Source: Chthoniobacterales bacterium (lineage in GTDB: Bacteria > Verrucomicrobiota > Verrucomicrobiia > Chthoniobacterales > UBA10450). Taken from it: DNA of 64,000 bases. The notes beneath the pieces were generated by a model, which was not told the origin of the DNA, ran no database searches, and saw only the letters and a program-made list of their open reading frames with translations. Each line of letters starts with the position of its first letter. Within the stretch, counting starts at the first letter, position 1. A program made the position numbers and the translations under genes. Shown in pieces: positions 31,372 through 44,656 of the stretch. The stretch is from positions 225,177-289,176 of the forward strand of contig JBJMXD010000005.1 of assembly GCA_045809795.1 (NCBI GenBank), given 5' to 3'.

Positions 31372-33213
31372 TTGAGCAGGATACAAGCCGACAAGCCCTG
31401 CCGTCGCGCCGTGGCTCGCGGGTTGCTCCCCTGCACATTTGTCCCTGTCCTGACCGGGCGCTTCGATAAATTGACTTTGGAGCGGGGCATAGAAAGCTTC
31501 ATCAACTTGGAACATCCTCACAATAAAATCGAGCGTTCGATCCTGAAGATCATTCTTTGGACAGTCGGGCTGATTCTGCTCGTCGCCATCGGCGGAGTGG
31601 TTGGCTTTCGCCAGTTTAGAGCATGGCAACAACGGCGACTGGTCGCGGAGGCCTACGGGTTGGTCGCGCAAGGTGATTATCATCGCGCCAGTCTCGATGC
31701 CCGGCGCATCCTCCAGATTAATCCCGATAGCGCGGAGGGTTGCCGAATCATGGCCCGGCTTTCCGAGATCGCTGGCACGCGCGGGGCGTTGGACTGGCGA
31801 CGGCGTGTGATGGAGCTCGGTAACGCTACGCCTGACGATTTGATTCTTTTGGCCCGCGCTGCTGTGAAGTTCGACGATCGCCAGACGGCGGACGTCGCGA
31901 TCGGGAAGCTGCCGGCGAGTGCGAAAGAGACGGCGGATTACCACGCTTTGCTCGCGGACATTGCCTTTGCCCGGCGCGATGGCGTTGAAATGGAACGCCA
32001 GCTCAGCGAAGCGGCGCGCCTCGCCCCGACAAATAAGGATTATGCGATGCGGCTGGCCTCGTTGCGGTTGGGGGCGAACGATCCAAGCATTCGCGCCGAG
32101 GGAAAACAGGCGCTCCTGGAAATGCAAAAGGATCCGGCCTTACGCCGTGACGCGACCCGTTACCTCGTGGAGGATGCGTTGCGGCAAAAGCTGACTCTTA
32201 CCGCGCTCGAACTGGCGCGTCAGCTCGACAGTTTCCCGGACAAGTCCTTTTCCGACCGGCTCCTTCTTCTCACCGCGCTCGATGCCGCGAAAGACAACGG
32301 ATTCGCCGCGTTTTTGGAGGAGATGAAAACGGCCTCAGCTGACGATCCGGAACGCGCGGCGGCGTTACTGACCTGGTTTAACATGCACAGGCGTGAGGCA
32401 GACGCGATCGCGTGGAGCGCGAACCTGCCACCTGGAGTGCTCGGACAAAAAATGGTGCAAATAGCACTGTCCGATTCGTACGTCGCGGCAAAAGACTGGA
32501 CGGGCTTGCAGCGGCTCGTGAACTCGGGCAACTGGGGGACGGTCGATTTTCTCCGGAACGCGCTTGATGCCCGCGCCCTGCGTGAACTTGGGAACCAGCC
32601 GGAATCCGAGGTGCAGTGGAATGAAGCGATCAAAAAAGTGGCCGGCGATTCGCGGCAGGCGCTGACCCTGGCGGAAACGGTTGAGAAATGGGGCTGGCGC
32701 CCGGAAGCGATCGATCTGCTCTGGTTGCTCGCGAAAGATCCGGTGAGAGCGGACGACGCGCTTCGCACTTTATACGGCTACTTCGCCAGGAACGATGACA
32801 CGGAAAACATGTATCGCGTTTTGCTCCACCAGGTGGAATTGCATCCCGACGATTTGAACACGCAGAATAATTTCGCGCAGCTTTCGCTCCTCCTGAACCT
32901 GAATACCGCTCGCGGACAAAAGGCCGCCCGTGACGTTTACGAGAAAAGTCCAAAGAATCCCGCTTACGTTTCGACCTACGCCTTCGCGCTTCACACAGCC
33001 GGCGATTCGAAGAAAGCACTGAAAATTCTGGAGACTTTAACGCCGGAACAACTGCACAAGCCCGAGATCGCGGCCTACTACGGCGTGATTCTGGCCGCGG
33101 GCGGCGATCAGACCCGCGCTGCTGAATTTCTCGATATCGGCGAGAAAGCGACCCTCTTGCCGCAGGAAAAAGACCTCATCGAAAAAGCGCGCCGTTCCCT
33201 GGCGCAACGCTGA
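31372..33213 (+). CDS. TPR-repeat protein with an N-terminal membrane anchor, divergent from the exosortase
   Basis: ~570-613 aa. TM segment ILKIILWTVGLILLVAIGGVV followed by many TPR-like helices. The start is uncertain: no ATG precedes the TM, and TTG candidates lie at 31372 and 31507. Confidence 0.7.
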   Translation: MSRIQADKPCRRAVARGLLPCTFVPVLTGRFDKLTLERGIESFINLEHPHNKIERSILKIILWTVGLILLVAIGGVVGFRQFRAWQQRRLVAEAYGLVAQGDYHRASLDARRILQINPDSAEGCRIMARLSEIAGTRGALDWRRRVMELGNATPDDLILLARAAVKFDDRQTADVAIGKLPASAKETADYHALLADIAFARRDGVEMERQLSEAARLAPTNKDYAMRLASLRLGANDPSIRAEGKQALLEMQKDPALRRDATRYLVEDALRQKLTLTALELARQLDSFPDKSFSDRLLLLTALDAAKDNGFAAFLEEMKTASADDPERAAALLTWFNMHRREADAIAWSANLPPGVLGQKMVQIALSDSYVAAKDWTGLQRLVNSGNWGTVDFLRNALDARALRELGNQPESEVQWNEAIKKVAGDSRQALTLAETVEKWGWRPEAIDLLWLLAKDPVRADDALRTLYGYFARNDDTENMYRVLLHQVELHPDDLNTQNNFAQLSLLLNLNTARGQKAARDVYEKSPKNPAYVSTYAFALHTAGDSKKALKILETLTPEQLHKPEIAAYYGVILAAGGDQTRAAEFLDIGEKATLLPQEKDLIEKARRSLAQR

Positions 33214-33238
33214 ATTCTGGGCCAGATTACGCCCGAAC

Positions 33239-33260
33239 CGGTCCCTCGGACCGATTCTTA
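33239..33260 (+). terminator. Possible intrinsic terminator after the TPR gene
   Basis: CGGTCC-CTC-GGACCG hairpin followed by ATTCTTAATT. Confidence 0.35.
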
Positions 33261-33298
33261 ATTAGACAAGTTTCAACCCGGCTGCGGTCCGGCATGCT

Positions 33299-34168
33299 AT
33301 GAAACCAGGAAAATTCACCCACACCATCGCCGTCCTGCTTTCTTCGATTACGGCGTTCTTTACCCACTCCGCGCCGGCCGCGGTCCCGGCGTCGAAGATC
33401 AAGCTCAGCAAGAAATCGAATTCGTCGAAGAAAGAAGGCCTCCTCAAGGTCGATCCTATTTCTTACACGCCCATGGCGAGCAACGATCCCCCATTGAACA
33501 ACCCCGGCGAAAAGTTTCCGTGGCGAAAAGAAATCGTCACCACCGTTTTTTGGATCGGCGAGAAACCGACCGCGAATAATCCCGTACCGAATCGCTCCAG
33601 TTCATGGGACGCAAACTGGACGAAGAACTACGGCGGGTTCGACGATCCGGAGAAATCGCATCGGCACGATTTCATTCCGGCGAAGTTCACCCCGCGACAA
33701 AATCCGTTCTACTGCGCGCTGCCTTACAACGACAAAGCGCGCGACGGCCACCGGCCCGAAGCGCCGCGCGTCGTGCCGTGGTTCAACGAAGCGTATCAAG
33801 GCCCCGGCGTTTCCACCTGCAAAGGCCGCTGGATCGCGATCCGCAAAGGAAACAAGGTCGCCTACGCGCAATGGGAAGATGCCGGTCCATTTCGGACCGA
33901 TCACTGGCAATACGTTTTCGGCAACGAACGTCCGAAACCGAACCTGAACAAAGGCGCCGGGCTCGACGTTTCACCAGCCGTCCGCGATTACCTGGGCATT
34001 GACGAGACCGACGTAACCGATTGGAAATTCGTCGACTTCAGCGAAGTACCTCACGGCCCCTGGTCCAAGCTCGGTGATAACAACACGTTTGTGATCAACG
34101 CCCGTAAAGGCATCGCGACGGTGGCCTCCGCGAATCCTACCCCCGGCGGCGTGACGGTTCGGCCCTAG
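33299..34168 (+). CDS. Hypothetical secreted protein (possibly the first, degenerate cassette)
   Basis: 289 aa. Signal peptide (IAVLLSSITAFFTHSAPA), then a conserved-looking Trp/Pro-rich core. The TAG stop lies in a degenerate R''-like CCCTAGC. Confidence 0.65.
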   Translation: MKPGKFTHTIAVLLSSITAFFTHSAPAAVPASKIKLSKKSNSSKKEGLLKVDPISYTPMASNDPPLNNPGEKFPWRKEIVTTVFWIGEKPTANNPVPNRSSSWDANWTKNYGGFDDPEKSHRHDFIPAKFTPRQNPFYCALPYNDKARDGHRPEAPRVVPWFNEAYQGPGVSTCKGRWIAIRKGNKVAYAQWEDAGPFRTDHWQYVFGNERPKPNLNKGAGLDVSPAVRDYLGIDETDVTDWKFVDFSEVPHGPWSKLGDNNTFVINARKGIATVASANPTPGGVTVRP

Positions 34169-34263
34169 CAACGACATGACGCCCCGTTCCCTCCCGACTT
34201 CGCCGTGATAGGCGAAAAAATGTTCGCCTTTAAATACGAACCTTCGTCTAATTCTCGTTAGAC
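34163..34263 (+). repeat. attC0, a decayed attC-like site (R''-like CCCTAGC ... R' GTTAGAC)
   Basis: The 3' end CGTCTAATTCTCGTTAGAC matches the attC7 3' end. The 5' half is only loosely similar, and the L-box pairing is lost. Confidence 0.5.
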
Positions 34264-34264
34264 G

Positions 34265-34561
34265 TTGAGAGCCGTGCACTATCACGATGGAACACCAGTG
34301 AAGCTCGGCGATCGGGTGCGTGCGGCCATTCCGGGCGGCACAGCCCCGGCACGCATCGTCATGCTCGGAGACACCTATGAGCATCTGGAGATCGATCCAC
34401 AGTTCCTGAGCTGGGTGAAGCGTGACAGAGTGCTGGAGCCAGCGCATGTTGTGCTCGAGTGGATCGAGGAAAACCCCTTTGCACATGACGATCCGAAATA
34501 TGCTCCAGTCGGAAACTTCATGTTTTCACCGCTCGATTCTGCAGTCACGCGTGACGTCTAA
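34265..34561 (+). CDS. Cassette 1 ORF, hypothetical
   Basis: 98 aa. TTG at 34265 (alternative GTG at 34274) lies 2 nt after the R' core. The stop TAA is the TAA of the attC1 R'' box. No family recognised. Confidence 0.5.
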   Translation: MRAVHYHDGTPVKLGDRVRAAIPGGTAPARIVMLGDTYEHLEIDPQFLSWVKRDRVLEPAHVVLEWIEENPFAHDDPKYAPVGNFMFSPLDSAVTRDV

Positions 34562-34678
34562 CCATGCGATGGAGCGAACGCCGGACCGCTTCGCGTCCAC
34601 ATTTGAGATGACTTCGACACTTCCACTCCGAGCGATGCGCGGTCTCGCCAGCCGTCGCTCATCTTGTTCTCGTTAGAT
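34556..34678 (+). repeat. attC1 (123 bp, loop class I)
   Basis: GTCTAAC...GGAGCGAACG...TTTGAGATGACTTCGACACTTCCACTCCGAGCGA...CGTCGCTCATCTTGTTCTCGTTAGAT. Confidence 0.85.
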
Positions 34679-34725
34679 GACGCGACGTGCCTTCTGGAAT
34701 CACCAAGAAATAGCTCGCGACCCAC

Positions 34726-35124
34726 ATGAGCTCCGATTTTGACCCGCGCCCGGACGAGCCTGCCGGCCACGTCGCGGACTCCTTTGTTCGGATGTTCTTC
34801 GGTGACGACGAGACTCGAGCGGAAGCCCTATCCTGGCTCAAAGCGGGTGGTGACAAGCACACTTTGGGAGAGCTAGCCTCCACTTCCGTATCAGTTCGCT
34901 TAGTCAACGCCGTTTATCGCGCCGGTGCGACGAAGGTTTGGGCCGTCGAGATCGACAGGTATCCCGATGGCAGGGAAAATACTGGCAAGATTGTTATCGA
35001 GTTGCCGGACGAGCCCCGGCTACGCAGTCAAGTCTTGGCGTGGGCGAGTCGGAAATCTAGAGCCAAAGGTTTTGGTGAAATCTACGACGAAAAGCAACAT
35101 TATGTTTTCCTCATGCTGGACTGA
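34726..35124 (+). CDS. Cassette 2 ORF, hypothetical cytoplasmic
   Basis: 132 aa with an ATG start. Stops 3 nt before attC2. Confidence 0.6.
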   Translation: MSSDFDPRPDEPAGHVADSFVRMFFGDDETRAEALSWLKAGGDKHTLGELASTSVSVRLVNAVYRAGATKVWAVEIDRYPDGRENTGKIVIELPDEPRLRSQVLAWASRKSRAKGFGEIYDEKQHYVFLMLD

Positions 35125-35127
35125 GTC

Positions 35128-35250
35128 ATCTAACCAAGCGATGGAGCGAACGGCGACCCGCTTTCGGTCCGCGCGCTCGCCAGCTAGAGTGTCTTTCGTG
35201 AAGGCACAGCGCGCTCTCGGTCGCCGTCGCTCATCTTGTTCTCGTTAGAT
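35128..35250 (+). repeat. attC2 (123 bp, unique loop)
   Basis: ATCTAAC ... GAGCGAACGGCGACC / GGTCGCCGTCGCTC ... GTTAGAT. Confidence 0.85.
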
Positions 35251-35521
35251 GGTGAATGCCGTTCCCAAAGCAGCGAACAAAAGACCAGCGTGGCAGCGCC
35301 GCGCTGTGAGTCAGCTTCAGTGGCGGCATCTTTATGCATGGCTTTTGAGTCTTGGTGTGGCACTTGTCATCGGATACGCCCTTCAGCAATGTGGATTGGC
35401 TTCGGTTCCTTGGGCGCTTTTATTCGTTCTTCCTTTTGTCCTTGCCTCCAGTTTCATGATCCCGCTCGCATATCGTCGCGGCTTGGAGGACGGGAGAGCG
35501 CACCCGTCTGACTCGGAGTGA
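35249..35521 (+). CDS. Cassette 3 ORF, small membrane protein (2 TM)
   Basis: 90 aa. The ATG overlaps the R' core (GTTAGATG). Hydrophobic helices LYAWLLSLGVALVIGYAL and WALLFVLPFVLASSFMI. Confidence 0.55.
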   Translation: MVNAVPKAANKRPAWQRRAVSQLQWRHLYAWLLSLGVALVIGYALQQCGLASVPWALLFVLPFVLASSFMIPLAYRRGLEDGRAHPSDSE

Positions 35522-35542
35522 GCTGATGCAGCAGCGCCGACC

Positions 35543-35665
35543 ATCTAACCATGCGATGGAGCGAACGGCGGACCGCCGCATGACAAGTATGAAGGAAAAA
35601 TTAAGAATTAAGAAGTATCCGGAGCGCGCTCCCGTCCGCCGTCGCTCATCTTGTTCTCGTTAGAT
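35543..35665 (+). repeat. attC3 (123 bp, loop class III)
   Basis: ATCTAAC ... GAGCGAACGGCGGAC ... ATGACAAGTATGAAGGAAAAATTAAGAATTAAGAAGTAT ... GTCCGCCGTCGCTC ... GTTAGAT. Confidence 0.85.
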
Positions 35666-36206
35666 GTTTCGACTGCACGTAACACGAACGATTTGGTTCG
35701 CAGCACTCGCGTGTGGGCTTGCCGCGATGGGTGAGGACACGCCAGTAACCAGCGCTCAGCAGCCCGCGCTCGAGAAGCTCGCAGGATCGGTCGGGGTTTG
35801 GGAGAGCACCACGCGGTATCGATTCGCGCCGGATATGCCTGTCTTTGAGAGCCACAGTGTCGAGACGACGCAGTGGTCCCCGAACCACAAGTTTCTGATT
35901 TCGGACCAGCGAGGAACAATGCCTGACGGGACGATAAACCGGGTCGTTGTCATTACTTGGGATCCGAAGGAGAAGTTGTACAAGCTGGTGGCGATCTATG
36001 CCGGAGGAGAAACCGAGCAACTGGCAATGACTGTCGAGGGCAGCGTGCGAACCATCGTCTCCTATCGTCACATCGGTGAGCGCATGATTCGCTGTGAGAA
36101 TAAGATGGAAGACACATCACCTACGGAATTTAAGGCCCGCTGCGAATGCACGGATCGGGAAACGAATTGGACCTTCTCGGAGGCAAGCTCAAAGAAAGTG
36201 CAGTGA
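35664..36206 (+). CDS. Cassette 4 ORF, secreted protein (DUF1579-like, tentative)
   Basis: 180 aa. The ATG overlaps the R' core. Signal peptide TIWFAALACGLAAMG. Confidence 0.65.
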   Translation: MFRLHVTRTIWFAALACGLAAMGEDTPVTSAQQPALEKLAGSVGVWESTTRYRFAPDMPVFESHSVETTQWSPNHKFLISDQRGTMPDGTINRVVVITWDPKEKLYKLVAIYAGGETEQLAMTVEGSVRTIVSYRHIGERMIRCENKMEDTSPTEFKARCECTDRETNWTFSEASSKKVQ

Positions 36207-36212
36207 GCCAAC

Positions 36213-36335
36213 ATCTAACCAAACGATGGAGCGAACGGCTGGCAGCCATGGAAAGTAAGATTTAAGAATTATGAAGCATGAAACCGCAGCGACGCGCCGT
36301 CCCGCCAGCCGTCGCTCATGTTGTTCTCGTTAGGC
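36213..36335 (+). repeat. attC4 (123 bp, loop class II)
   Basis: ATCTAAC ... GAGCGAACGGCTGGC ... GGAAAGTAAGATTTAAGAATTATGAAG ... GCCAGCCGTCGCTC ... GTTAGGC. Confidence 0.85.
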
Positions 36336-36353
36336 GACTAGCACGCGTCACCC

Positions 36354-36704
36354 ATGGATCCATTTCCAGAACCGCATGAACTGCTCTCATTCTTCTCGCA
36401 GGAGCCGGAGCTCGCGCACGCCGACACGCCGCCCTTTTACAATACCCTCAGATTCAGCGGGCGCGTCGGTGAGATCGCTTACGTCGTCAGGATTTCTCCG
36501 TCAGATCGCGAGCTACGGCTGCAGACGCAGTCCGACCAGATGAATGTCGATCTTGCCGTCACAGATGTCGCTGGCCTTACGGTTCACGAGGGGCCGACGG
36601 AGTCCCTTATGATGGCGACGTTTTCGCCTGACAGTCGACGCGGGCTTCTTAAGTTTCGTCTGCATCCACGCCTTGAGGTCGAATGGCCGTTCGAGAAGCA
36701 TTGA
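36354..36704 (+). CDS. Cassette 5 ORF, hypothetical
   Basis: 116 aa with an ATG start. No signal peptide. Confidence 0.55.
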   Translation: MDPFPEPHELLSFFSQEPELAHADTPPFYNTLRFSGRVGEIAYVVRISPSDRELRLQTQSDQMNVDLAVTDVAGLTVHEGPTESLMMATFSPDSRRGLLKFRLHPRLEVEWPFEKH

Positions 36705-36714
36705 CGACCGGTCG

Positions 36715-36837
36715 CCTAACCATGCGATGGAGCGAACGGCGGACCGCTGTGCGCTCCACTTTTGAGATGACTTCCACACTTCCACTCCGAGCGACGCGCG
36801 CTCTGGTCCGCCGTCGCTCATCTTGTTCTCGTTAGGC
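36715..36837 (+). repeat. attC5 (123 bp, loop class I)
   Basis: GCCTAAC ... GAGCGAACGGCGGACC ... TTTGAGATGACTTCCACACTTCCACTCCGAGCGA ... GGTCCGCCGTCGCTC ... GTTAGGC. Confidence 0.85.
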
Positions 36838-36839
36838 GT

Positions 36840-38072
36840 ATGAAACCACGCCCTCGATATTATTATGCCGCACTGCTCGGTGTCTTGTGTGCCGCTGGTT
36901 CGGGCCCCCTTCGGGCCGATCACGTGGATGACGTCGTAGCGGCGCAGATAAGACAACACCACATTCCGGGACTCGCGCTGGCAATCATCGAAGGAGGTGC
37001 GGTCGCCAGAGAACAAGGTTATGGATACGCGGACACAAGCCAGAGGACGGCAGTGACGCCTTCAACGCTTTTTCAGGCCGGCTCCGTCAGCAAAGCCGTC
37101 TCCGCATTGGGCGCGCTGCATCTCGTTGATCAGGGCAAAGCGTCACTAGACGAGGATATCAACTCGAAGCTGCGGACATGGCAAATACCGCAGAACGGGT
37201 TCACAAAAGAACATGCCGTGACGCTGCGGCTGATTCTCAGCCATAGTGCGGGTCTGACAGTGCATGGGTTTTCAGGCTATCCGGTGGACGCACCGCTCCC
37301 GTCCCTCGTGCAGATTCTCAACGGGCAAAGGCCGGCTAATTCAGCCGCGGTTCGCGTTGAAGAAGTTCCGGGGAGCCATTGGAATTACTCGGGAGGAGGC
37401 TATCTCGTCATTCAGCAAATGATAATGGATCTTACAGGAAAGCCGTTTGGGCAGTATATGCATGAGACGGTTCTGCAGCCTCTCGGGATGGTTTCCAGCT
37501 CGTATGCACAGCCGTTGCCAGCCGCAATGGCCGACCACGCGGCGACGGGTTACGCCGGTCTGTTTCGCCGTGCCATCAAAGGCCGCTGGCGTGTTCATCC
37601 GGAGTTGGCGGCCGCGGGTCTGTGGACGACGCCTGGCGATCTGGCTCGCTTCTTGATAGGTATCCAGCGCTCACGCGCTGGCACCTCCAATCCGATCATC
37701 TCGCGGTCCACCACGCGTCAAATGCTGACGAACCAAAAAAATGATGATGGTCTCGGCGTATTTATCGGAGGCGAGCCGCTCAAGTTCGGCCACGACGGAA
37801 GCAACGTGGGGTTCGATACCATGACCATCGCTTTTGCCGATAGAGGGCAAGGCGCAGTTATCATGATGAACACCAATGTGGACATCAAAGCTCTGAAAGA
37901 GATTCTGTTGGATGCTATCGGCGAGCAGTATCGCTGGCCGGGTTATCCAGTTGGATCGCGCCGAACGCCTAACCATGCGATGCAGCCAACCCCTGGCCGG
38001 CGTACGACCCAGTTTTCCATGACTTTAACCTCTCATCCCGCAGCCACGCGCGCCCACGCCAGCGGTGGCTGA
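36840..38072 (+). CDS. Cassette 6 ORF, secreted beta-lactamase-fold serine hydrolase (class C / family VIII esterase / PBP-like)
   Basis: 410 aa. Signal peptide YYYAALLGVLCAAGSGPLRA. Has SxxK (FQAGSVSKAV), YSGGGY and HDGSNVGF motifs. The last ~35 codons run through attC6. Confidence 0.85.
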   Translation: MKPRPRYYYAALLGVLCAAGSGPLRADHVDDVVAAQIRQHHIPGLALAIIEGGAVAREQGYGYADTSQRTAVTPSTLFQAGSVSKAVSALGALHLVDQGKASLDEDINSKLRTWQIPQNGFTKEHAVTLRLILSHSAGLTVHGFSGYPVDAPLPSLVQILNGQRPANSAAVRVEEVPGSHWNYSGGGYLVIQQMIMDLTGKPFGQYMHETVLQPLGMVSSSYAQPLPAAMADHAATGYAGLFRRAIKGRWRVHPELAAAGLWTTPGDLARFLIGIQRSRAGTSNPIISRSTTRQMLTNQKNDDGLGVFIGGEPLKFGHDGSNVGFDTMTIAFADRGQGAVIMMNTNVDIKALKEILLDAIGEQYRWPGYPVGSRRTPNHAMQPTPGRRTTQFSMTLTSHPAATRAHASGG

Positions 38073-38089
38073 TCTTGTTCTCGTTAGGT
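37967..38089 (+). repeat. attC6 (123 bp, divergent, class IV-related loop)
   Basis: GCCTAAC ... CAGCCAACCCCTGGC / GCCAGCGGTGGCTG ... GTTAGGT. Fully contained in the 3' end of the preceding ORF. Confidence 0.8.
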
Positions 38090-38107
38090 GACTAGAACGT
38101 CCTCCCT

Positions 38108-38461
38108 GTGGCCAATCCCGACAAACGCACTTCGTATCTCAAAAAGCTCGTCAGTGCCGCGCGCGCCGTCATCACCTATCAGGTCGGTTTGCCATTCGGC
38201 TGCGCGCGCATTGGCGGGCTCCTCTCTGCGCTGCGCCCGTTCGAGCCGCTCGATTATCCTGTATTCGACGAGTACCGTAATGCCATCGTCAATCTGCCGG
38301 TGGGGACGGAGCGGCTTCATTGGGCCCGTGAGAGTCTCCGCGAGAAGGACATTCGGCTCGAAGCCATCACTGGTGAGTTTCGCGATCGCATTTTCGAGGC
38401 CTGTTATGACATCATTGATCGCCATGCCGAGCCTGTTGACAAGCAACGCGACGTCACCTAA
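38108..38461 (+). CDS. Cassette 7 ORF, hypothetical
   Basis: 117 aa with a GTG start. The stop TAA is the TAA of the attC7 R'' box. Confidence 0.5.
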   Translation: MANPDKRTSYLKKLVSAARAVITYQVGLPFGCARIGGLLSALRPFEPLDYPVFDEYRNAIVNLPVGTERLHWARESLREKDIRLEAITGEFRDRIFEACYDIIDRHAEPVDKQRDVT

Positions 38462-38578
38462 CCAAGCGATGGAGCGAACGGCCGGCAGTCCTGGAAAGTA
38501 AGATTTAAGAATTATGAAGGATGAAACCAAAGCCACGCGCTCTCCGGCCAGCCGTCGCTCATCTAATTCTCGTTAGAT
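38456..38578 (+). repeat. attC7 (123 bp, loop class II)
   Basis: ACCTAAC ... GGAAAGTAAGATTTAAGAATTATGAAGG ... CCAGCCGTCGCTCATCTAATTCTCGTTAGAT. Confidence 0.85.
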
Positions 38579-38972
38579 GGCTCCGCGCTCCTTTTGGCGG
38601 TCTCGCTTGATCCTCCTTTGCGCATTTCTGCTGGTTGCCGGATGCGTATCACTGACAAGTGTCGTTCTCGCACCCAATCCCCACCCGCGTGAGGCATTAA
38701 CCCTCGATTTGCGCCTGGCGTACGTGCACATTCACCGTCAAACCATAATGGACACGCTTCTCGCGATCGACAGCGCCATCAAACGACAGTCCGGCCGGAG
38801 GCATGGCCTCGCCTTCTCCGTGGAATACGGAGGGGGCAAAAATGTTTCCATTGATGCTCACGACATGACTGTGAGGAGCTTGCTCCTCCAGATCTGTCGC
38901 CAGTCTGACCTCATTTGCGAGATGGACGATCCGAATTCGCCTTACGACGTTTCCATCACCTCCCGAAACTAG
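38577..38972 (+). CDS. Cassette 8 ORF, lipoprotein
   Basis: 131 aa. The ATG overlaps the R' core. Lipobox LLVAGC. Confidence 0.65.
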   Translation: MAPRSFWRSRLILLCAFLLVAGCVSLTSVVLAPNPHPREALTLDLRLAYVHIHRQTIMDTLLAIDSAIKRQSGRRHGLAFSVEYGGGKNVSIDAHDMTVRSLLLQICRQSDLICEMDDPNSPYDVSITSRN

Positions 38973-38981
38973 AGTGAAAAC

Positions 38982-39104
38982 ATCTAACCATGCGATGGAG
39001 CGAACGGCGGACCGTCCGTATGCAAGGCGGAATTAAAAATTAAGAATTATGAAACAAGCAACGCGCGCTCTCGTCCGCCGTTGCTCATCTTGTTCTCGTT
39101 AGGC
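38982..39104 (+). repeat. attC8 (123 bp, class III variant)
   Basis: ATCTAAC ... GAGCGAACGGCGGAC ... AATTAAAAATTAAGAATTATGAAAC ... GTCCGCCGTTGCTC ... GTTAGGC. Confidence 0.85.
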
Positions 39105-39112
39105 CTCTCCAA

Positions 39113-39802
39113 ATGCGCTGGTTACAAATCTTCGCCATTCCAGCTGTTGTGGTAACCGCTTTTGCGGCAGACCAAGCTATCACAGTCGGCGGCGACCGAG
39201 CGAAGGAACTGTCCCGGGAAGACATCAGCAATATCGTATTGCTTTGCAAACAGACGCGACCTTCGGAACGTCTGTGGGCGGTTGTTACCGATAAGAGCCC
39301 TGCCGCACCAAACCAGATGTTACGCGCCACAGTCTATTTCTATCCGACTTTGATTCAGTCTCGGCTCAGGACGGGTTCGGCAGCTTCGGTGACCGCGGGA
39401 GTATCTGCCGACAAATTCGTCAGCATACAATCTCGGCAAGGACGCTGGATTAGCAGCGGAGCGCAATTAGCCAAGTATGCACAAGTTGCCATCGATGATA
39501 GCCAGTTCCTGAATGCACCTGGAGACATTCGCGACCCCCAAGAAGGCCCATTTTTTGTCGCCAACGAGATTTTAGACGCGGACATTGTTTCGATCGTCGA
39601 TTCCTTGCGCGCTTTCTTACGGGCCGATCCCAGTTCCGCCGGACCGGCGCGCAGGACTCATCCAATCACCATCATGATGGGTTCCAAGAGTCATGCTGAG
39701 GTCTGGTCGAGTGGGGGCGATAAGCATTTTGACACCTACGTGCTCGACAAGCACGGCGAGAAGTGGAGCATTTCTAAGACTGGACAGTTCGACGCACAAT
39801 GA
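39113..39802 (+). CDS. Cassette 9 ORF, secreted protein
   Basis: 229 aa. Signal peptide MRWLQIFAIPAVVVTAFAA. Confidence 0.65.
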   Translation: MRWLQIFAIPAVVVTAFAADQAITVGGDRAKELSREDISNIVLLCKQTRPSERLWAVVTDKSPAAPNQMLRATVYFYPTLIQSRLRTGSAASVTAGVSADKFVSIQSRQGRWISSGAQLAKYAQVAIDDSQFLNAPGDIRDPQEGPFFVANEILDADIVSIVDSLRAFLRADPSSAGPARRTHPITIMMGSKSHAEVWSSGGDKHFDTYVLDKHGEKWSISKTGQFDAQ

Positions 39803-39818
39803 CAAGTCGCCCCACGAC

Positions 39819-39941
39819 GCCTAACCAAGCGATGGAGCGAACGGCGGACCGCCGGATGACAAGTATGAAGGAAGAATTAAGAATTAAGAAGTATTCGGAG
39901 CGCGCTCTCGTCCGCCGTCGCTCATCTTGTTCTCGTTAGGC
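39819..39941 (+). repeat. attC9 (123 bp, loop class III)
   Basis: GCCTAAC ... ATGACAAGTATGAAGGAAGAATTAAGAATTAAGAAGTAT ... GTTAGGC. Nearly identical to attC3. Confidence 0.85.
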
Positions 39942-39943
39942 CC

Positions 39944-40318
39944 ATGCAGCGCGTCTTGATGCCATTGGTCACCTTCATCGGTGCGATTATCGCATCTACG
40001 GTGATGGCGGCGTCGGATATCCCATTAATCTGCGAGGAGAACCTTGCCACCGAACACAAGCGGTGCGGCATCTCTGACGCGCAGGCTCGTGAGGCCATGC
40101 GCTTCGTCAGGAGGATTCCCGGTGTGAGTCATCAGATCATCACGATCGATGCGCTCGATCTACCGCAGGTTGTCGTCACCACAGGCGAGCCATTCGAGCG
40201 GGGCCACACCGTCTTTTTGCGACGGATGGGTCGGCGTTGGACAGTGGAGAAGACGGTCCCGTGGACCAAGAAAGATTGGATCATCTTAGGCGCGAACAGG
40301 CCTAACCAAACGCTGTAG
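39944..40318 (+). CDS. Cassette 10 ORF, secreted protein
   Basis: 124 aa. Signal peptide LMPLVTFIGAIIASTVMAA. The reading frame passes through the attC10 R'' box. Confidence 0.6.
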   Translation: MQRVLMPLVTFIGAIIASTVMAASDIPLICEENLATEHKRCGISDAQAREAMRFVRRIPGVSHQIITIDALDLPQVVVTTGEPFERGHTVFLRRMGRRWTVEKTVPWTKKDWIILGANRPNQTL

Positions 40319-40423
40319 CGAACGCCTACCCGTCGTTCGCCCAACATTTCCTATGACTAAACCATTTCACCTCCGATCGACGCTCGCCTCTGGTAGGCGT
40401 CACTGATCTCTTTCTGGTTAGAC
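40300..40423 (+). repeat. attC10 (124 bp, loop class IV)
   Basis: GCCTAAC ... GTAGCGAACGCCTACC ... CATGACTAAACCATTTCAC ... GGTAGGCGTCACTG ... GTTAGAC. Confidence 0.8.
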
Positions 40424-40425
40424 CT

Positions 40426-41028
40426 ATGAGCACGCCATTCCAAGTCGTCGCGCTGGTCGGACTAGCGGCCTGGCTGTGCCCGAAGGCCTACGCGCCGATC
40501 TACGGTGGCTATCCAGGTTTGCATTCGCTCATCAAACAGTCAGAAATTGTCGCCGCCGTCACGATACTCGAGCGGTTGTCGGACGACGATTTCGGTGATT
40601 CCGCGCGATACAAGATACAGTTCGACAAGCTGCTGAAGGGATCCGCGTCAGAGAAGCAAGTCGTCGCTTACCTCCGCTACCTCGAAATCATTCCAGAGGA
40701 GGAGATGCGACGCACCCCTCGGCCGGGGCCGCAGCCATCAACCCATTACTTTGCTCTAACGGACCGGCTTGAGCCGTTCCGTAGGCAAGCGCGGTTCGTT
40801 GTCTTCTTAACGAAAGCGAGGAAAGAGGTCGAGACGGCATACGAAAACGTTAACTGCATGGGATCGACATTTCCTTTGTCCCCGCTAAGAGATCTTGACG
40901 CGCTCAAGATGGATTCATTGCCGGATACCCTGATTCTCCTTTTCCGAGAGTATGTTGACTTCAGGCGCACAGAGCTGAAGGAAGTTGAGGCGCAGCTAAG
41001 TGAATTTGTTCATCATCGCGACGAATAG
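40426..41028 (+). CDS. Cassette 11 ORF, secreted protein
   Basis: 200 aa. Signal-like N-terminus FQVVALVGLAAWLCPKAYA. The TAG stop abuts attC11. Confidence 0.65.
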   Translation: MSTPFQVVALVGLAAWLCPKAYAPIYGGYPGLHSLIKQSEIVAAVTILERLSDDDFGDSARYKIQFDKLLKGSASEKQVVAYLRYLEIIPEEEMRRTPRPGPQPSTHYFALTDRLEPFRRQARFVVFLTKARKEVETAYENVNCMGSTFPLSPLRDLDALKMDSLPDTLILLFREYVDFRRTELKEVEAQLSEFVHHRDE

Positions 41029-41151
41029 GTCTAACCAAGCGATGGAGCGAACGGCTGGCAGCAGTGGAAAGTAAGATTTAAGAAGTATGAAGGAAAAAAC
41101 CGCAGCCACGCGCTGTTCCCCCAGCCGTCGCTCATCTTGTTCTCGTTAGAC
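41029..41151 (+). repeat. attC11 (123 bp, loop class II)
   Basis: GTCTAAC ... GAGCGAACGGCTGG ... GGAAAGTAAGATTTAAGAAGTATGAAGG ... CCAGCCGTCGCTC ... GTTAGAC. Confidence 0.85.
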
Positions 41152-41154
41152 CCA

Positions 41155-41682
41155 GTGAAAACGTTCGCCCTCTTGCTCTGCGTTGTTGGAATCGCGGCTG
41201 GCGAAACCCGGTCGATTAGCGATCTGACCCCGAGCGGCATAGTGGGTAATTGGGAGTCCCTGGCAGCGCGGGCGGACGGGGTACCGGTCCCCATCGTGCT
41301 CCAAATGTCTTTTACCGCTCCGGACGCCGCACACCTCGTGGTCAGTAACTCCACGGATCCGGAGTCTACTCCTCGGTTTCTTGGGAAGCTGACGAGTTCC
41401 AGCCTAATCAAAGGGAAGATCCATCTTAGATTTTCTGCAGTGCCTCCATATCCGATTCCTGCCGAGGGAGTGGATTATGGATATGATCGAGTAGAGATCG
41501 ACGGGCGCGCGACCGATGCCGGTGAGCTCTCCTCGGTGGAAGGAACGCTTGTGATGCACGGTACAAAGGAGAAGGAAGTGACGTATCGCGTTTTTTTCCT
41601 TAAGTCGCTTTGGGTGCATGAGCTTGCTCAATATTCGAGAGCCGCTCAGGAAATCATAAAGAATGTGCAAGCTCACCATTAG
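41155..41682 (+). CDS. Cassette 12 ORF, secreted protein
   Basis: GTG at 41155 gives (M)KTFALLLCVVGIAAG. The track start at 41137 is a TTG inside attC11 and was rejected. Confidence 0.6.
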   Translation: MKTFALLLCVVGIAAGETRSISDLTPSGIVGNWESLAARADGVPVPIVLQMSFTAPDAAHLVVSNSTDPESTPRFLGKLTSSSLIKGKIHLRFSAVPPYPIPAEGVDYGYDRVEIDGRATDAGELSSVEGTLVMHGTKEKEVTYRVFFLKSLWVHELAQYSRAAQEIIKNVQAHH

Positions 41683-41804
41683 TCTAACCACGCGATGCAG
41701 CGAACGCCTACCCGTCGTTCGCCTGACATTTCCCATGACTAAATCATTCCACTTCCGACCAACGCTCGCCTCGGTAGGCGTCGCTGATCTCTTTCTCGTT
41801 AGAT
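41682..41804 (+). repeat. attC12 (123 bp, loop class IV)
   Basis: GTCTAAC ... CAGCGAACGCCTACC ... CATGACTAAATCATTCCAC ... GGTAGGCGTCGCTG ... GTTAGAT. Confidence 0.85.
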
Positions 41805-42312
41805 GGTAACCGCCAAGACTATTACCACGCTGCTCGCCATAGCACCGATCGTCGTCCTCGTGGTGGCTTGGGCACGGCGCTTCATATCCAACACCGATGG
41901 TGGGCTCGTTTCGGTCGATGACGTTCCGCAGCTGCTATCGGCGCTTACTGGCACCGGCAAGGATGGCTCGTTTTGGGTCGTGCTTGTCCCGAACACGGCG
42001 CGAGAGGATGGCAATTTCGCGAATCTACAATTCTCGATCGAAGGTGACCGCGTCGGGATGGATTGGGTGTTGCTCGCCAAGCGCAATATTGAAGACCAAG
42101 GCGCTTTTACCCAGTTTGTCGCTGCCGCTGGGGCGACTGTGCAAGACATAACGATGAATGGCGTCCGGTATCTCCGAGTAAGTGACGGTCCCGATCTGGC
42201 AAAGCTCGGTCAGGACTTTCTTCAGCAGGTTTATCACGTGGCGCCAGAAGACAAGCTACAGCTGATCATCACGGATTTCGCATGGACACCGAAGACGGCT
42301 GCGAAAAATTAA
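41803..42312 (+). CDS. Cassette 13 ORF, N-terminally anchored protein
   Basis: 169 aa. The ATG overlaps the R' core. TM segment TTLLAIAPIVVLVVAWA. The 3' end runs into the truncated attC13. Confidence 0.6.
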   Translation: MVTAKTITTLLAIAPIVVLVVAWARRFISNTDGGLVSVDDVPQLLSALTGTGKDGSFWVVLVPNTAREDGNFANLQFSIEGDRVGMDWVLLAKRNIEDQGAFTQFVAAAGATVQDITMNGVRYLRVSDGPDLAKLGQDFLQQVYHVAPEDKLQLIITDFAWTPKTAAKN

Positions 42313-42366
42313 GAAGTGCTCAACGTCCGCTCAGGCCAGCCGTTGCTCGCCCTGTTCTCATTAGAC
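42306..42366 (+). repeat. attC13, a 5'-truncated attC remnant (class III-like 3' half, R' degenerated to ATTAGAC)
   Basis: AAATTAAGAAGTGCT...CCAGCCGTTGCTCGCCCTGTTCTCATTAGAC. No R''/L'' half is present. Confidence 0.6.
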
Positions 42367-42379
42367 CAACGCAGGCGAA

Positions 42380-42697
42380 ATGAATGGATTATTGCTCGTC
42401 GTTACTTCTATTTCGGGCATGTTGGCATTCGCGTTTTTCCTTCTCGCGTTCATGTCGCTCACGGCGATCGACGCAGCAGAGAGGGCCGAGATAAATGAGG
42501 CCGCGCGACGGTTCTTTCCAGGAGACGGCTTCTTTGCGCAGTTAAATCGGCGTGGGTACATCCAAAGCGAAGCAGGGTCGGCGTCCCGGATGGGCGATCA
42601 TTGGCGGGCACGCCCACAAATTCGCACGTTCCTTTCACTGGGCGCCGGCTTTCTCCTTATCGCTGTGATTTGCGGGCATTTCGCCACGCTGCCATAA
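42380..42697 (+). CDS. Cassette 14 ORF, small membrane protein (2 TM)
   Basis: 105 aa; LLLVVTSISGMLAFAFFLLAFM and FLSLGAGFLLIAVICG. Confidence 0.55.
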   Translation: MNGLLLVVTSISGMLAFAFFLLAFMSLTAIDAAERAEINEAARRFFPGDGFFAQLNRRGYIQSEAGSASRMGDHWRARPQIRTFLSLGAGFLLIAVICGHFATLP

Positions 42698-42710
42698 AGT
42701 CGTATTAAAG

Positions 42711-42831
42711 GTCTAACCAGGTGATGCAGCGAACCGTGCTTGATTTTGGTTCACGTTTCAGAGCAGCAAAAGCTTTAGCTCGCCGCCAACACGCTCTCGC
42801 GGACGGAAGTTGGTCTTGTGTCTCATGAGGA
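42711..42831 (+). repeat. attC14, an attC with intact R'' (GTCTAAC) but a degenerate 3' end (…GTCTTGTGTCTCATGAGGA)
   Basis: The 5' GTCTAACCAGGTGATGCAGCGAAC matches the family. The 3' end resembles ATCTTGTTCTCGTTAG with substitutions. Confidence 0.55.
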
Positions 42832-43085
42832 GCCGACGTGTCGTGAAAACTCTCAGCGTGATTGTCGGGGGAATTCTTGTCGCGGTCGGTGTTGTCGGCA
42901 GCGCAGCGGGCGTCTTCGCGTTAATTGATCCAAAAGGTTCAAAGGCGGCAGATGATGGAGATCCATTCGGCCCGCCGTCGGGCGTTCTGGAGTCTTCGGT
43001 CATGCTGGGTGTCTACGTCGCAATTACCGCGGTTGGGGTTTACCTGTTGTGGAGGTCACGCCGGAGGCAGCGCATATCCACCTAA
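42825..43085 (+). CDS. Cassette 15 ORF, small membrane protein (2 TM)
   Basis: 86 aa from ATG at 42825, which occupies the position of the degenerate R'. The stop TAA is the TAA of the terminal R'' stub. Confidence 0.5.
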   Translation: MRSRRVVKTLSVIVGGILVAVGVVGSAAGVFALIDPKGSKAADDGDPFGPPSGVLESSVMLGVYVAITAVGVYLLWRSRRRQRIST

Positions 43086-43100
43086 CGAGGCGATCAGAAG
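43080..43100 (+). repeat. attC15, a terminal attC stub (ACCTAACGAGGCGAT...)
   Basis: Only R'' plus ~8 nt are retained. Similarity ends where the convergent kinase stop codon (43094-43096) begins. Confidence 0.5.
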
Positions 43101-44656
43101 AGTTCCGGATGATCGTCGGCGACGGGTTCGGGGGTGATGATGGAGCGGATTTTGGCGAGGAGATCGTTGAAGTCGTAGGGCTTTTGGATCGTGTCGATGA
43201 CCCCGGCTTTCAACATTTCGGAACGAATCGCGGGTTCTAGATACCCGCTAGCGACGATGGCGCGGACGCCGGGGCGGCTCTCTTTCATTTTCAGAAAGGC
43301 TTCGCGGCCACCGAGGCGGGGCAGACCGAGATCGCAAACGACGAGGCCAATCTCGGCACTATGGGTTTCGAAAAGAGAGACGGCTTCGATGCCGTCCTTC
43401 GCGGGAAGAACGCGGAAGCCTTCGCTCTCCAGGATGGAAACGCCGAGTTCGCGGAGCATGTCTTCGTCTTCCACCAGCAGGATGGTTTGCGGAATGTCCT
43501 GGCGCGGCGCGCCGGTCCGATCGGGGCCCAGTTGCTCGGCGGCGACGTGTTTGACCGGTAAATAAATGATGAAGCTGGTGCCGGTGCCGGGCTCGCTCTC
43601 GACCTGGACGAAACCGCGGTGGTTGTTGACCACGCCGTAAACGACGGAGAGCCCGAGGCCGGTGCCTTTGCCGCGCTCTTTCGTGCTGAAGAACGGCTCG
43701 AAAATGTGCGACTTTACCTCACGCGTCATGCCGATGCCGGAGTCGCGCACCCGAATGCAGGCGTAATTGTCCGCGGTCACGCCGGAAAAAATTTCCATGA
43801 GATCGGAGCCGGGAGTGATGCCGGTGCTGAGAGTCAGCGTGCCGCCCTCGGGCATCGCGTCCCGGGCGTTCACGCAAAGATTCAGCAGGACTTGGTGAAG
43901 CTGGCTCTTATCGGCGGTGACGAGCGAAAGTTCGGAGGCGAGGTCGAGATTGAAGCTGATCGTCTTCGGAAATGTTGCCTGGAGCATCGGTTCGAGATCG
44001 CGCACCAGCGCGTTCAGATCGACCGACGAAAAACGCGCTTCAGTCTGGCGCGCTGAGGTCAGCAATTGCTGAACGAGGGCCGCGCCGCGATCGACGGCTT
44101 CCTTGATGACTTTGATCGCGCCGGGAAATTCGTTTGGCTTCGCGTGCGAGCTTTCGAGTTTGTTGGTGTACCCGAGAATGATCGCAAGGATGTTGTTGAA
44201 ATCGTGCGCGATGCCGGCGGCCAGCGTGCCCAGGCCTTCCATCTTCTGCGCCTGGACGAGTTGCTCCTCGAGCCTCTTCCGTTTTGTATCGTTGAAGAGG
44301 TAAACGTGGAGATCGACCAATTCGCCGGCCGTGAAATTTCCAACCAACCGGCCGACGACATACACGGGGTTGCCGTTGCGCTGCGTCATTTCCAATTCGT
44401 GGCGGTCGACGATTCCGTGCTGCCGCACCATCTCCAGCAATTCGACTCCGTCCTGCCGGCTCCGAAGCAACGAAAGAACGTTCGCGGACCGCGCTTCTTC
44501 CGCCGATTCAAATCCAAACATGGTTAAGGCGGCCGGATTGCACCCGATAATCTGGCCATCCGTCCGCATCACGAGGATGCCGGTGAAGTTGTCAGCGACG
44601 AAACGCAGGGCGCGTTTCTCCATTTCGTCTGGTGCGTCGGAAGAATGGTTCGTCAC
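43094..44656 (-). CDS. Hybrid sensor histidine kinase/response regulator (PAS - HisKA - HATPase - REC)
   Basis: 520 aa. H-box GIAHDFNNILAIILGY, G-boxes DSGIGM and GTGLGLS, and a C-terminal receiver (ILLVEDEDMLRE...VVCDLGLP). The GTG start overlaps the upstream stop (GTGA). Confidence 0.85.
   Translation of the reverse strand: MTNHSSDAPDEMEKRALRFVADNFTGILVMRTDGQIIGCNPAALTMFGFESAEEARSANVLSLLRSRQDGVELLEMVRQHGIVDRHELEMTQRNGNPVYVVGRLVGNFTAGELVDLHVYLFNDTKRKRLEEQLVQAQKMEGLGTLAAGIAHDFNNILAIILGYTNKLESSHAKPNEFPGAIKVIKEAVDRGAALVQQLLTSARQTEARFSSVDLNALVRDLEPMLQATFPKTISFNLDLASELSLVTADKSQLHQVLLNLCVNARDAMPEGGTLTLSTGITPGSDLMEIFSGVTADNYACIRVRDSGIGMTREVKSHIFEPFFSTKERGKGTGLGLSVVYGVVNNHRGFVQVESEPGTGTSFIIYLPVKHVAAEQLGPDRTGAPRQDIPQTILLVEDEDMLRELGVSILESEGFRVLPAKDGIEAVSLFETHSAEIGLVVCDLGLPRLGGREAFLKMKESRPGVRAIVASGYLEPAIRSEMLKAGVIDTIQKPYDFNDLLAKIRSIITPEPVADDHPELF

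Follow-up and report, generated by a model that had tools for sequence, protein, structure and literature searches.

A row of long inverted repeats in a genome of the order Chthoniobacterales (Verrucomicrobiota) raises the question of whether it is an array of integron recombination sites (attC) and, if so, how such an array has kept its structure with no integrase gene (intI) beside it. The stretch of DNA analysed here, referred to as the window, comprises 64,000 nucleotides (nt) of assembly GCA_045809795.1 (contig JBJMXD010000005.1, positions 225,177 to 289,176 of the forward strand), and twelve repeats of 123-124 nt each are located on its plus strand between positions 34556 and 41804. An initial annotation had claimed that the inner arms of these repeats change in a compensating manner around one conserved bulged base, and had concluded that the sites were recently functional. 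Our analyses indicate that the repeats are very probably the attC sites of a sedentary chromosomal integron, which form covarying hairpins with bulged bases, and that the array represents an old platform that has kept its attachment site (attI) and has probably lost intI by deletion.

Organization of the array

Chance alone would give 0.42 matches to the pattern TAACC-N85-115-GTTAG in the window, and 14 are present. All twelve repeats, which lie where they had been annotated and carry the arm sequences as quoted there, are bounded by [AG][TC]CTAAC and GTTAG[AG][TC], and these ends agree with the R''/R' consensus of attC sites, RYYYAAC/GTTRRRY. In the list of open reading frames (ORFs), a single co-oriented plus-strand ORF was found between successive sites, with the attC at its 3' end and the TAA of R'' often supplying its stop codon. 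Beyond the twelfth site, the array runs on to approximately 43093 with two further sites, one truncated and one decayed. The whole array (34260-43093, plus strand) contains approximately 15 cassettes of plus-strand ORFs, the products of which are mostly orphans, and is embedded in conserved chromosomal flanks; synteny with related genomes extends to 34261/34262 on the left side and sets in again at 43094/43103 on the right side.

The cassettes also bear the signature of movement as units. Crossover would occur at G|TT, and the last six bases of a site belong to the next cassette; a cassette's first bases (TTAGxy) would thus be expected to match its own distal R'', as each cassette would have been inserted as a circle by crossover at this point. 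These first bases complement the cassette's own R'' in all twelve cases here (13 of 13 when the truncated site is included) and in 31 of 31 cases in the main array of the genome, which adjoins intI. The same outermost R-box positions, when compared within the sites as they now stand, are matched in only 5 of 12 sites here and 11 of 31 in the main array, which is approximately the random expectation.

Covariation in the paired arms

A consensus structure was derived by hand on the alignment of the twelve window sites, the columns of which are used for numbering below. The R box is formed by columns 2-7 with 118-123 and the L box by columns 13-15 with 107-109, followed by two helices, 17-21 with 102-106 and 23-31 with 93-101; G16 and one of A22/A23 remain unpaired. 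Between the R and L boxes, columns 8-12 of the 5' arm and 110-117 of the 3' arm form the unpaired spacer characteristic of attC sites, though an asymmetric one: in approximately 95% of the sites, the '' arm contributes 5 nt to it and the ' arm 8 nt.

On this structure, 96.0% of the cells in the twelve sites are standard pairs, and double-sided changes were observed in eight pairs (17-106, 21-102, 25-99, 26-98, 28-96, 29-95, 30-94 and the outer R-box pair). The covariation score was 0.245, compared with 0.086 +/- 0.017 in shuffled alignments, none of 500 of which reached the observed value. When the 3' partners were slid by one to three columns, a control in which the relatedness of the sites is kept, pairing fell to 17-48%. 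From the alignment alone, RNAalifold predicted identical helices with both bulges. The compensatory change of the inner arms described by the initial annotation is borne out.

A covariance model was built and used to collect further sites. Across 62 sites from the whole genome, 93.8% of cells were paired and 12 pairs covaried, compared with 26-37% pairing in the slid controls, and in a set of 67 distinct sites, drawn from over 15 other genomes that nearly all belong to the same genus, 96.7% were paired and 12 pairs covaried, including pairs of the L box. Pairing, rather than sequence, is thus what is conserved. In addition, a test similar to that of R-scape was implemented, in which a FastTree tree was used and the parsimony substitutions of each column were re-thrown on its branches to give 30 null alignments; all 7,503 column pairs were scored with a G-test corrected by the average product correction (APC). 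The proposed pairs listed there as 30-93, 17-105 and 28-95 ranked first to third. For the first two, no null pair scored equally high, and for the third E was 0.17; six of the proposed pairs were within the top 11, and six had E < 0.01 when only the 23 base pairs of the proposed structure were used for scaling. Significant covarying pairs are therefore found when the phylogeny is taken into account, and at least nine distinct, fully complementary arm haplotypes were recognized.

Extrahelical bases and strand preference

The extra A of the upstream arm, that is, AA facing a single T, had been described as present at the same position in every site, and this was found in 12 of 12 window sites, 59 of the 62 sites of the genome and 62 of 62 sites of relatives. 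It is not the only conserved bulge: a second one, G16, which the initial annotation had overlooked, is invariant in the window and is present in 58 of 62 sites of the genome and 57 of 62 sites of relatives, and a counterpart on the 3' arm is missing in 61 of 62 sites. Columns 17 and 106 covary in the sites of the genome (GC in 41, CG in 15), which shows the unpaired base to be G16 rather than G17.

Read on the bottom strand, the sites have the form 5'-RYYYAAC-(8 nt)-GAT...stem...loop...stem-T-CGCT[C/G]-C-ATC-(5 nt)-GTTRRRY-3', and both extrahelical bases fall within the arm opposite the AAC triplet (T-N5/6-C in bottom-strand notation). In a previous report, Nivina et al. (2016) described extrahelical bases near L'', with the one at L'' in position 16 and usually a G, the furthest one a conserved T at position 23 or 24, and spacer arms usually of 5-6 nt (PMC5027507). 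Larouche and Roy (2011) gave T-N6-G as the canonical arrangement and reported that, for IntI1, T-N6-C is equally good and T-N5-C works at a reduced level (PMC3053210). Counted from the R'' end, the bulges described here occupy position 16 and position 22/23 and are thus in the published canonical register (PMC5027507). The identification of the conserved A with the published conserved T on the bottom strand, on the arm that determines strand choice, is thus supported (PMC5027507, PMC3053210), and the placement of the bulge agrees with the published attC consensus.

Folding of the sites as single-stranded DNA is consistent with this arrangement. On the bottom strand, the T bulge was in register in 10 of the 12 minimum-free-energy folds and in 11 of 12 when centroid structures were counted, so that the consistent placement of the bulge holds for all but attC1, for which no canonical bottom-strand fold was obtained. 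The bottom strand was predicted to be more stable than the top strand in 49 of 62 sites (Wilcoxon p = 7e-9), in agreement with the strand skew described previously (PMC3053210). A further asymmetry, in which G.T mismatches numbered 47 on the bottom strand and 29 on the top strand, is suggestive of strand preference at most, being weak (p = 0.05) and based on cells that are not independent.

These features can be combined into a model of how the sites would operate. Each site would fold into a hairpin when the bottom (minus) strand becomes single-stranded. From the outside inwards, this hairpin would consist of the 7-bp (base pair) R box (RYYYAAC/GTTRRRY), the spacer of 8 and 5 nt, the 3-bp L box, the extrahelical C, a 5-bp stem, the extrahelical T (one of TT, at a spacing of 5 or 6 from the C), a 9-bp stem and a loop of approximately 60 nt. 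With the bulges opposite the AAC cleavage triplet, the integrase would select the bottom strand, and cassettes would be inserted in the orientation in which they are expressed. An integrase that reads shape and not sequence would allow the bases of the stem to drift provided that their partners change too, and covarying stems together with invariant bulges are the expected outcome.

An attI-like site without an adjacent integrase gene

The array is headed by an attI-like site (34203-34265, plus strand) with a 7-bp hairpin AGGCGAA/TTCGCCT, a core inverted repeat GTCTAA-TTCTCG-TTAGAC and a crossover GTT at 34259-34261. Over 63 nt, it shares 92% identity with the segment that separates the intI stop from the first cassette in the complete integron of the same genome, its end coincides with the array's first GTTAGAC, and homology to the corresponding loci of relatives stops at the GTT (34261). 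As this intI-proximal segment of 60 nt recurs with 92% identity and ends at that GTTAGAC, the left end of the array is, on sequence grounds, a copy of attI and not simply an attC in decay. Two further copies are found in the genome, at C5:73675-73736 and C6:786887-786942, the latter at the head of a small array; the element of approximately 60 nt thus heads three arrays, only one of which is adjoined by intI. The position typical of attI, between intI and the first cassette, is occupied by the main copy and by those of two relatives, G018 and G044. In 40 genomes of the genus, up to seven attI-like copies and zero to two intI genes were counted per genome, and several genomes had copies yet no detectable intI (e.g., G032 with seven copies and G012 with five).

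The genome encodes one IntI, at C5:72689-73627, on the same contig and 187 kb upstream of the window array. It scores 458 bits against TIGR02249 (cut-off 265), contains the catalytic residues and the IntI-specific insertion, and its gene is followed by attI and by a co-oriented array of 31 cassettes of the same attC family. At the locus orthologous to that of the window, G018 and G044 have the orthologue of the upstream gene followed by an intI 72-73% identical to that of this genome, attI and cassettes (L150, G018:C24, 1038-2626; L151, G044:C166; compared with window 34168-34203), whereas attI directly follows the upstream gene in G003, G012, G032 and G048, as it does here (G000). The locus is therefore polymorphic within the genus. 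The presence of intI at the orthologous locus of G018 and G044 suggests that a clean deletion of approximately 1.6 kb probably removed intI from an ancestral integron here, with attI being kept. A scan for promoters and terminators at the left end revealed nothing convincing; the attI hairpin AGGCGAA/TTCGCCT may be the old terminator of intI.

Cassette turnover and the case for recent function

The flanks of the array are 78-87% identical in G032 and G012, but no cassette is shared with the orthologous arrays of these genomes, which are 4.3 kb (G032) and 2.9 kb (G012) long with three attC sites each, compared with 8.8 kb here. Window cassettes 2, 5, 8 and 10 recur singly in arrays of other species at other loci, with 78-88% identity and with non-homologous neighbours. 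A blastn search with the array detected no duplicated cassettes elsewhere in the genome, the only hit being a 71%-identical paralogue of the upstream gene. Over 17 Watson-Crick pairs, the window sites have 0.92 mismatches per site, compared with 0.68 in the intI-proximal array (p = 0.58) and a mean of 3.9 in the other orphan clusters of the genome. The compensated arm types are common to the main integron array and to other species; thus, the covariation records selection on the genus-wide pool of cassettes and not changes that took place within this array.

The claim that the sites were recently functional accordingly receives indirect support on an evolutionary timescale, as indicated by pairing equal to that of the intI-proximal sites, the 13 of 13 complementary R boxes, the turnover of cassettes and the cassettes shared with other species, but it does not extend to activity since the loss of intI. 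Against it stand the loss of intI from this array and the decay seen in attC1, attC10 and the last two sites.

The intact IntI 187 kb upstream, with a near-identical attI and members of this attC family next to it, could still service the window array in trans. In the genus, attI-headed arrays outnumber intI genes, and a broader proposal, which we offer only tentatively, is that these arrays remain structurally intact and continue to exchange cassettes, with one IntI, either resident or transiently acquired by horizontal gene transfer, servicing several platforms in trans, and that T-N5/6-C with the 5/8 spacer is the recognition code of this clade of IntI. If this were true, the integrase-less array would be a working second integron and not a fossil.

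Alternative explanations

Several observations weigh against our interpretation as a sedentary chromosomal integron. The first extrahelical base is an atypical C, where a G is usual, and the spacer is asymmetric (5 vs 8); acceptance of such sites by the IntI of this genome is a prediction. At least one uncompensated mismatch is present in seven of the twelve sites, with three each in attC1 and attC10, and the two distal sites are broken. Within-genome sites are related, and cell counts thus exaggerate the number of independent events; moreover, the covariation test was our own implementation and not R-scape itself. Unlike a complete integron, the array has no intI beside it, and a tblastn search of the window with the genome's IntI found no remnant better than E = 1.1. 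With no integrase in the window, current activity would depend on supply in trans.

That last point bears on a live alternative, namely that the array is an inert relic of true attC sites that inherited their pairing from before the deletion of intI, that no recombination takes place now and that the covariation is silent on recent function. We consider this a possible state of the array, though hardly the probable one. It would account for the absence of an intI that is present at the orthologous locus of G018 and G044, for the fact that every compensated arm type is shared with other arrays and none has arisen in situ, and for the damage to attC1, attC10 and the two terminal sites; relatives with several attI-headed arrays but no detectable intI, G032 and G012 among them, point in the same direction. 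It is difficult to reconcile with an intact IntI that is accompanied on the same contig by an attI of 92% identity and by sites of this attC family, with pairing equal to that of the intI-proximal array and far better than that of the other orphan clusters, or with cassettes that are wholly different from those of orthologous arrays despite flanks approximately 80-87% identical.

The two remaining explanations dispute that the sites are selected recombination sites at all. The first is that the apparent covariation is a phylogenetic artefact, produced by the amplification of a few palindromic repeat sub-families with no selection on pairing; in its favour, the twelve window sites represent approximately five arm types, with many cells being copies of few events. 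However, the complementary haplotypes, at least nine in number, include sites of 62-63 nt with an unrelated inner stem and the same bulges, the relatedness-preserving slid controls fall to 17-48% pairing, the tree-aware null still places the proposed pairs at the top, and an independent sample from other genomes behaves in the same way. Taken together, these four lines of evidence exclude such an artefact to the extent that we regard it as highly improbable. We assign equally little credence to hairpins that act as RNA, terminating transcription or attenuating translation between cassette genes, or to repeats akin to repetitive extragenic palindromic (REP) sequences or miniature inverted-repeat transposable elements (MITEs), in place of DNA recombination sites. 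The sites do occupy the gaps between co-oriented ORFs and would be included in transcripts, the start codons of many cassettes adjoin R' (GTTAGATG), and the frame ending at the TAG of R' is open for a median of 47 codons, compared with 21-23 in the other two frames. Yet wobbles of the G.U type are rare (approximately 1% of cells on the top strand), the strand that folds better is the bottom strand and not the transcribed-sense strand, no T-tract terminators follow the hairpins, and no Rfam family was matched in a scan of 33000-44000 at E <= 0.1. Furthermore, only integron recombination explains both the cassette-phase complementarity of the R boxes and the presence of the same repeats beside intI and attI.

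Individual sites and neighbouring genes

The sites, all on the plus strand, differ in the integrity of their arms, and in each of them the bulged bases are at offsets +15 and +21/22 from the start of the site. Perfect pairing was found in attC2 (35128-35250; inner stem GGCGACC/GGTCGCC), attC3 (35543-35665; GGCGGAC/GTCCGCC), attC9 (39819-39941; 96% identical to attC3) and attC12 (41682-41804; GCCTACC/GGTAGGC, with C-G at pair 17-106). The longest perfect stem belongs to attC5 (36714-36837; 124.9 bits with the covariance model), in which the bulged G is at 36729 and the bulged A at 36735/36736. A single defect was observed in attC4 (36213-36335; stem GGCTGGC/GCCAGCC), with G.G at the L-box pair 13-109, and in attC8 (38982-39104), where pair 21-102 reads G.T on the top strand and C.A on the bottom strand.

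The annotated list of arms, correct in the sequences it gave, requires amendment for the other sites. The most divergent arms, those of attC6 (37967-38089), have compensated pairs at 17-106, 21-102 and 25-99 together with an uncompensated C.C at 26-98, and attC11 (41029-41151; stem GGCTGGC/CCCAGCC) has one terminal mismatch, C.C at 31-93. Two sites were omitted from that list, attC1 (34556-34678; 117 bits), with hybrid arms, three stem mismatches and both bulged bases present, and attC7 (38456-38578), with one C.A mismatch at pair 28-96 and the 3' end TCTAATTCTCGTTAGA. Where attC10 (40300-40423; R' = GGTTAGAC; 100.6 bits) had been credited with one wobble, this decayed relative of attC12 has three defects. 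Of the two sites beyond attC12, the truncated one (42304-42366) retains the loop and the 3' arm (R' = CATTAGAC) and lacks the R''-L'' arm, with the ORF at 41803-42312 extending into it, while the terminal one (42711-42831; 26 bits) has an intact 5' arm (GTCTAACCAGGTGATGCAGCGAAC) and a degenerate 3' arm.

Some further observations on individual sites were made. In attC1, an attC5-type 5' arm and loop are combined with an attC4-type 3' arm (GCCAGCC); this hybrid looks like the result of homologous exchange between neighbouring attC sites rather than of integrase action. The 3' end of attC7 (38557-38578) matches 16 nt of the attI core without a difference, and attI and attC sites are approximately 80% alike over their last 20 nt or so. 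Site length is 123-124 nt in approximately 80% of the sites. Short variants of 62-63 nt are found on another contig of the genome (e.g., 4036-4098, 5734-5795 and 6304-6366, on the minus strand, of L040, G000 C8:12500-20500), with an unrelated inner stem of G and C only and a near-absent loop but with the R and L boxes, the spacer and both bulges kept; in G045, a 62-nt attC replaces the 123-nt attC of the homologue of window cassette 2. Sites of 193 nt in relatives (L147 2407-2599 in G032 and L049 537-729 in G011) fit the model from end to end and presumably carry a loop insertion of approximately 70 nt.

Two candidate features were kept out of the structural model. Beyond a conserved asymmetric loop of 5 nt (CTCTC or CTCCC) on the 3' arm, columns 32-34 may pair with columns 85-87 to form an additional helix of 3 bp, CGC/GCG (e.g., 36745-36747/36798-36800); it is predicted by RNAalifold, its pair 32-87 is CG in nine sites and AU in two, and this pair (32-86 in the covariation ranking) is within the top 10, but the support was too thin for its inclusion. 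A small ORF within attC, from the ATG of GATGG in L'' to the TAG in R' (35 codons, e.g., 35556-35663), is open throughout in 5 of the 12 window sites, and an ORF starting in the loop was found in 12 of 55 sites; such ORFs inside attC are probably incidental.

Concentrating on the genes, the biggest cassette (36840-38072) encodes a 410-aa (amino acid) protein of the beta-lactamase/penicillin-binding fold (PF00144, 183 bits), and the product of 35664-36206 matches DUF1579; the other eight cassette products scanned matched no Pfam family. Upstream of the array are genes for an exosortase, a TPR protein and a 289-aa secreted protein of unknown function (33299-34168), which belongs to no Pfam or NCBIfam family and is conserved at the locus throughout the genus; a paralogue of 71% identity is encoded at C2:76650-77231. 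Downstream is a gene for a hybrid histidine kinase.

Comparison with known systems

It is well established in integron biology that attC hairpins and their extrahelical bases are structurally conserved, and the detection of attC sites by IntegronFinder already relies on a covariance model (PMC4889954); the present finding thus mainly validates the annotation of the array. What is new is a lineage-specific attC family in Chthoniobacterales, with a non-canonical C as the first extrahelical base and a 5/8 spacer, and a well-documented case of an integrase-less array derived from the deletion of intI with retention of attI. Such a family from a little-studied soil phylum would be helpful in tuning models of attC and in studying how different clades of IntI read their sites. 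The locus is in addition a clean natural example of how integrase-less clusters originate, with a precise loss of intI that is polymorphic in the genus and attI kept, and a natural test case for the servicing of several attI platforms in trans by one integrase.

Compared to the attC sites of mobile integrons (e.g., attCaadA7; PMC5027507, PMC3053210), the sites share the R boxes, the 3-bp half of the L box, an extrahelical base at position 16, a conserved bottom-strand T at 22/23, the location of both extrahelical bases opposite AAC, the unpaired central spacer, a stem with free sequence and kept pairing, and better folding of the bottom strand. They differ in having C and not G as the first extrahelical base (T-N5/6-C vs T-N6-G), spacer arms of 5 and 8 nt where both arms are usually 5-6 nt, and a length of 123-124 nt with a variable terminal structure of approximately 60 nt that falls into few sequence classes. 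The Vibrio cholerae repeats (VCR, approximately 130 nt) are similar in being long, homogeneous attC repeats distributed over tens of cassettes per genome and across a genus, with mostly orphan cassette proteins and an array content that varies between close species. Here, however, the phylum and the repeat sequence are different, two extrahelical bases are present compared with three in VCR2, the complete copy has intI and cassettes in the same orientation, and there are several arrays per genome.

The array also resembles the integrase-less attC clusters described in 2016 (PMC4889954), with at least two attC sites, no intI within 10 kb, no intI pseudogene and an IntI elsewhere in the genome. 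Unlike in those clusters, the origin of the present array is readable, as attI has been kept and sister species harbor intI at the same locus, which indicates that it is an integron minus its intI, and neither a piece split off from another array nor the product of insertion at secondary sites.

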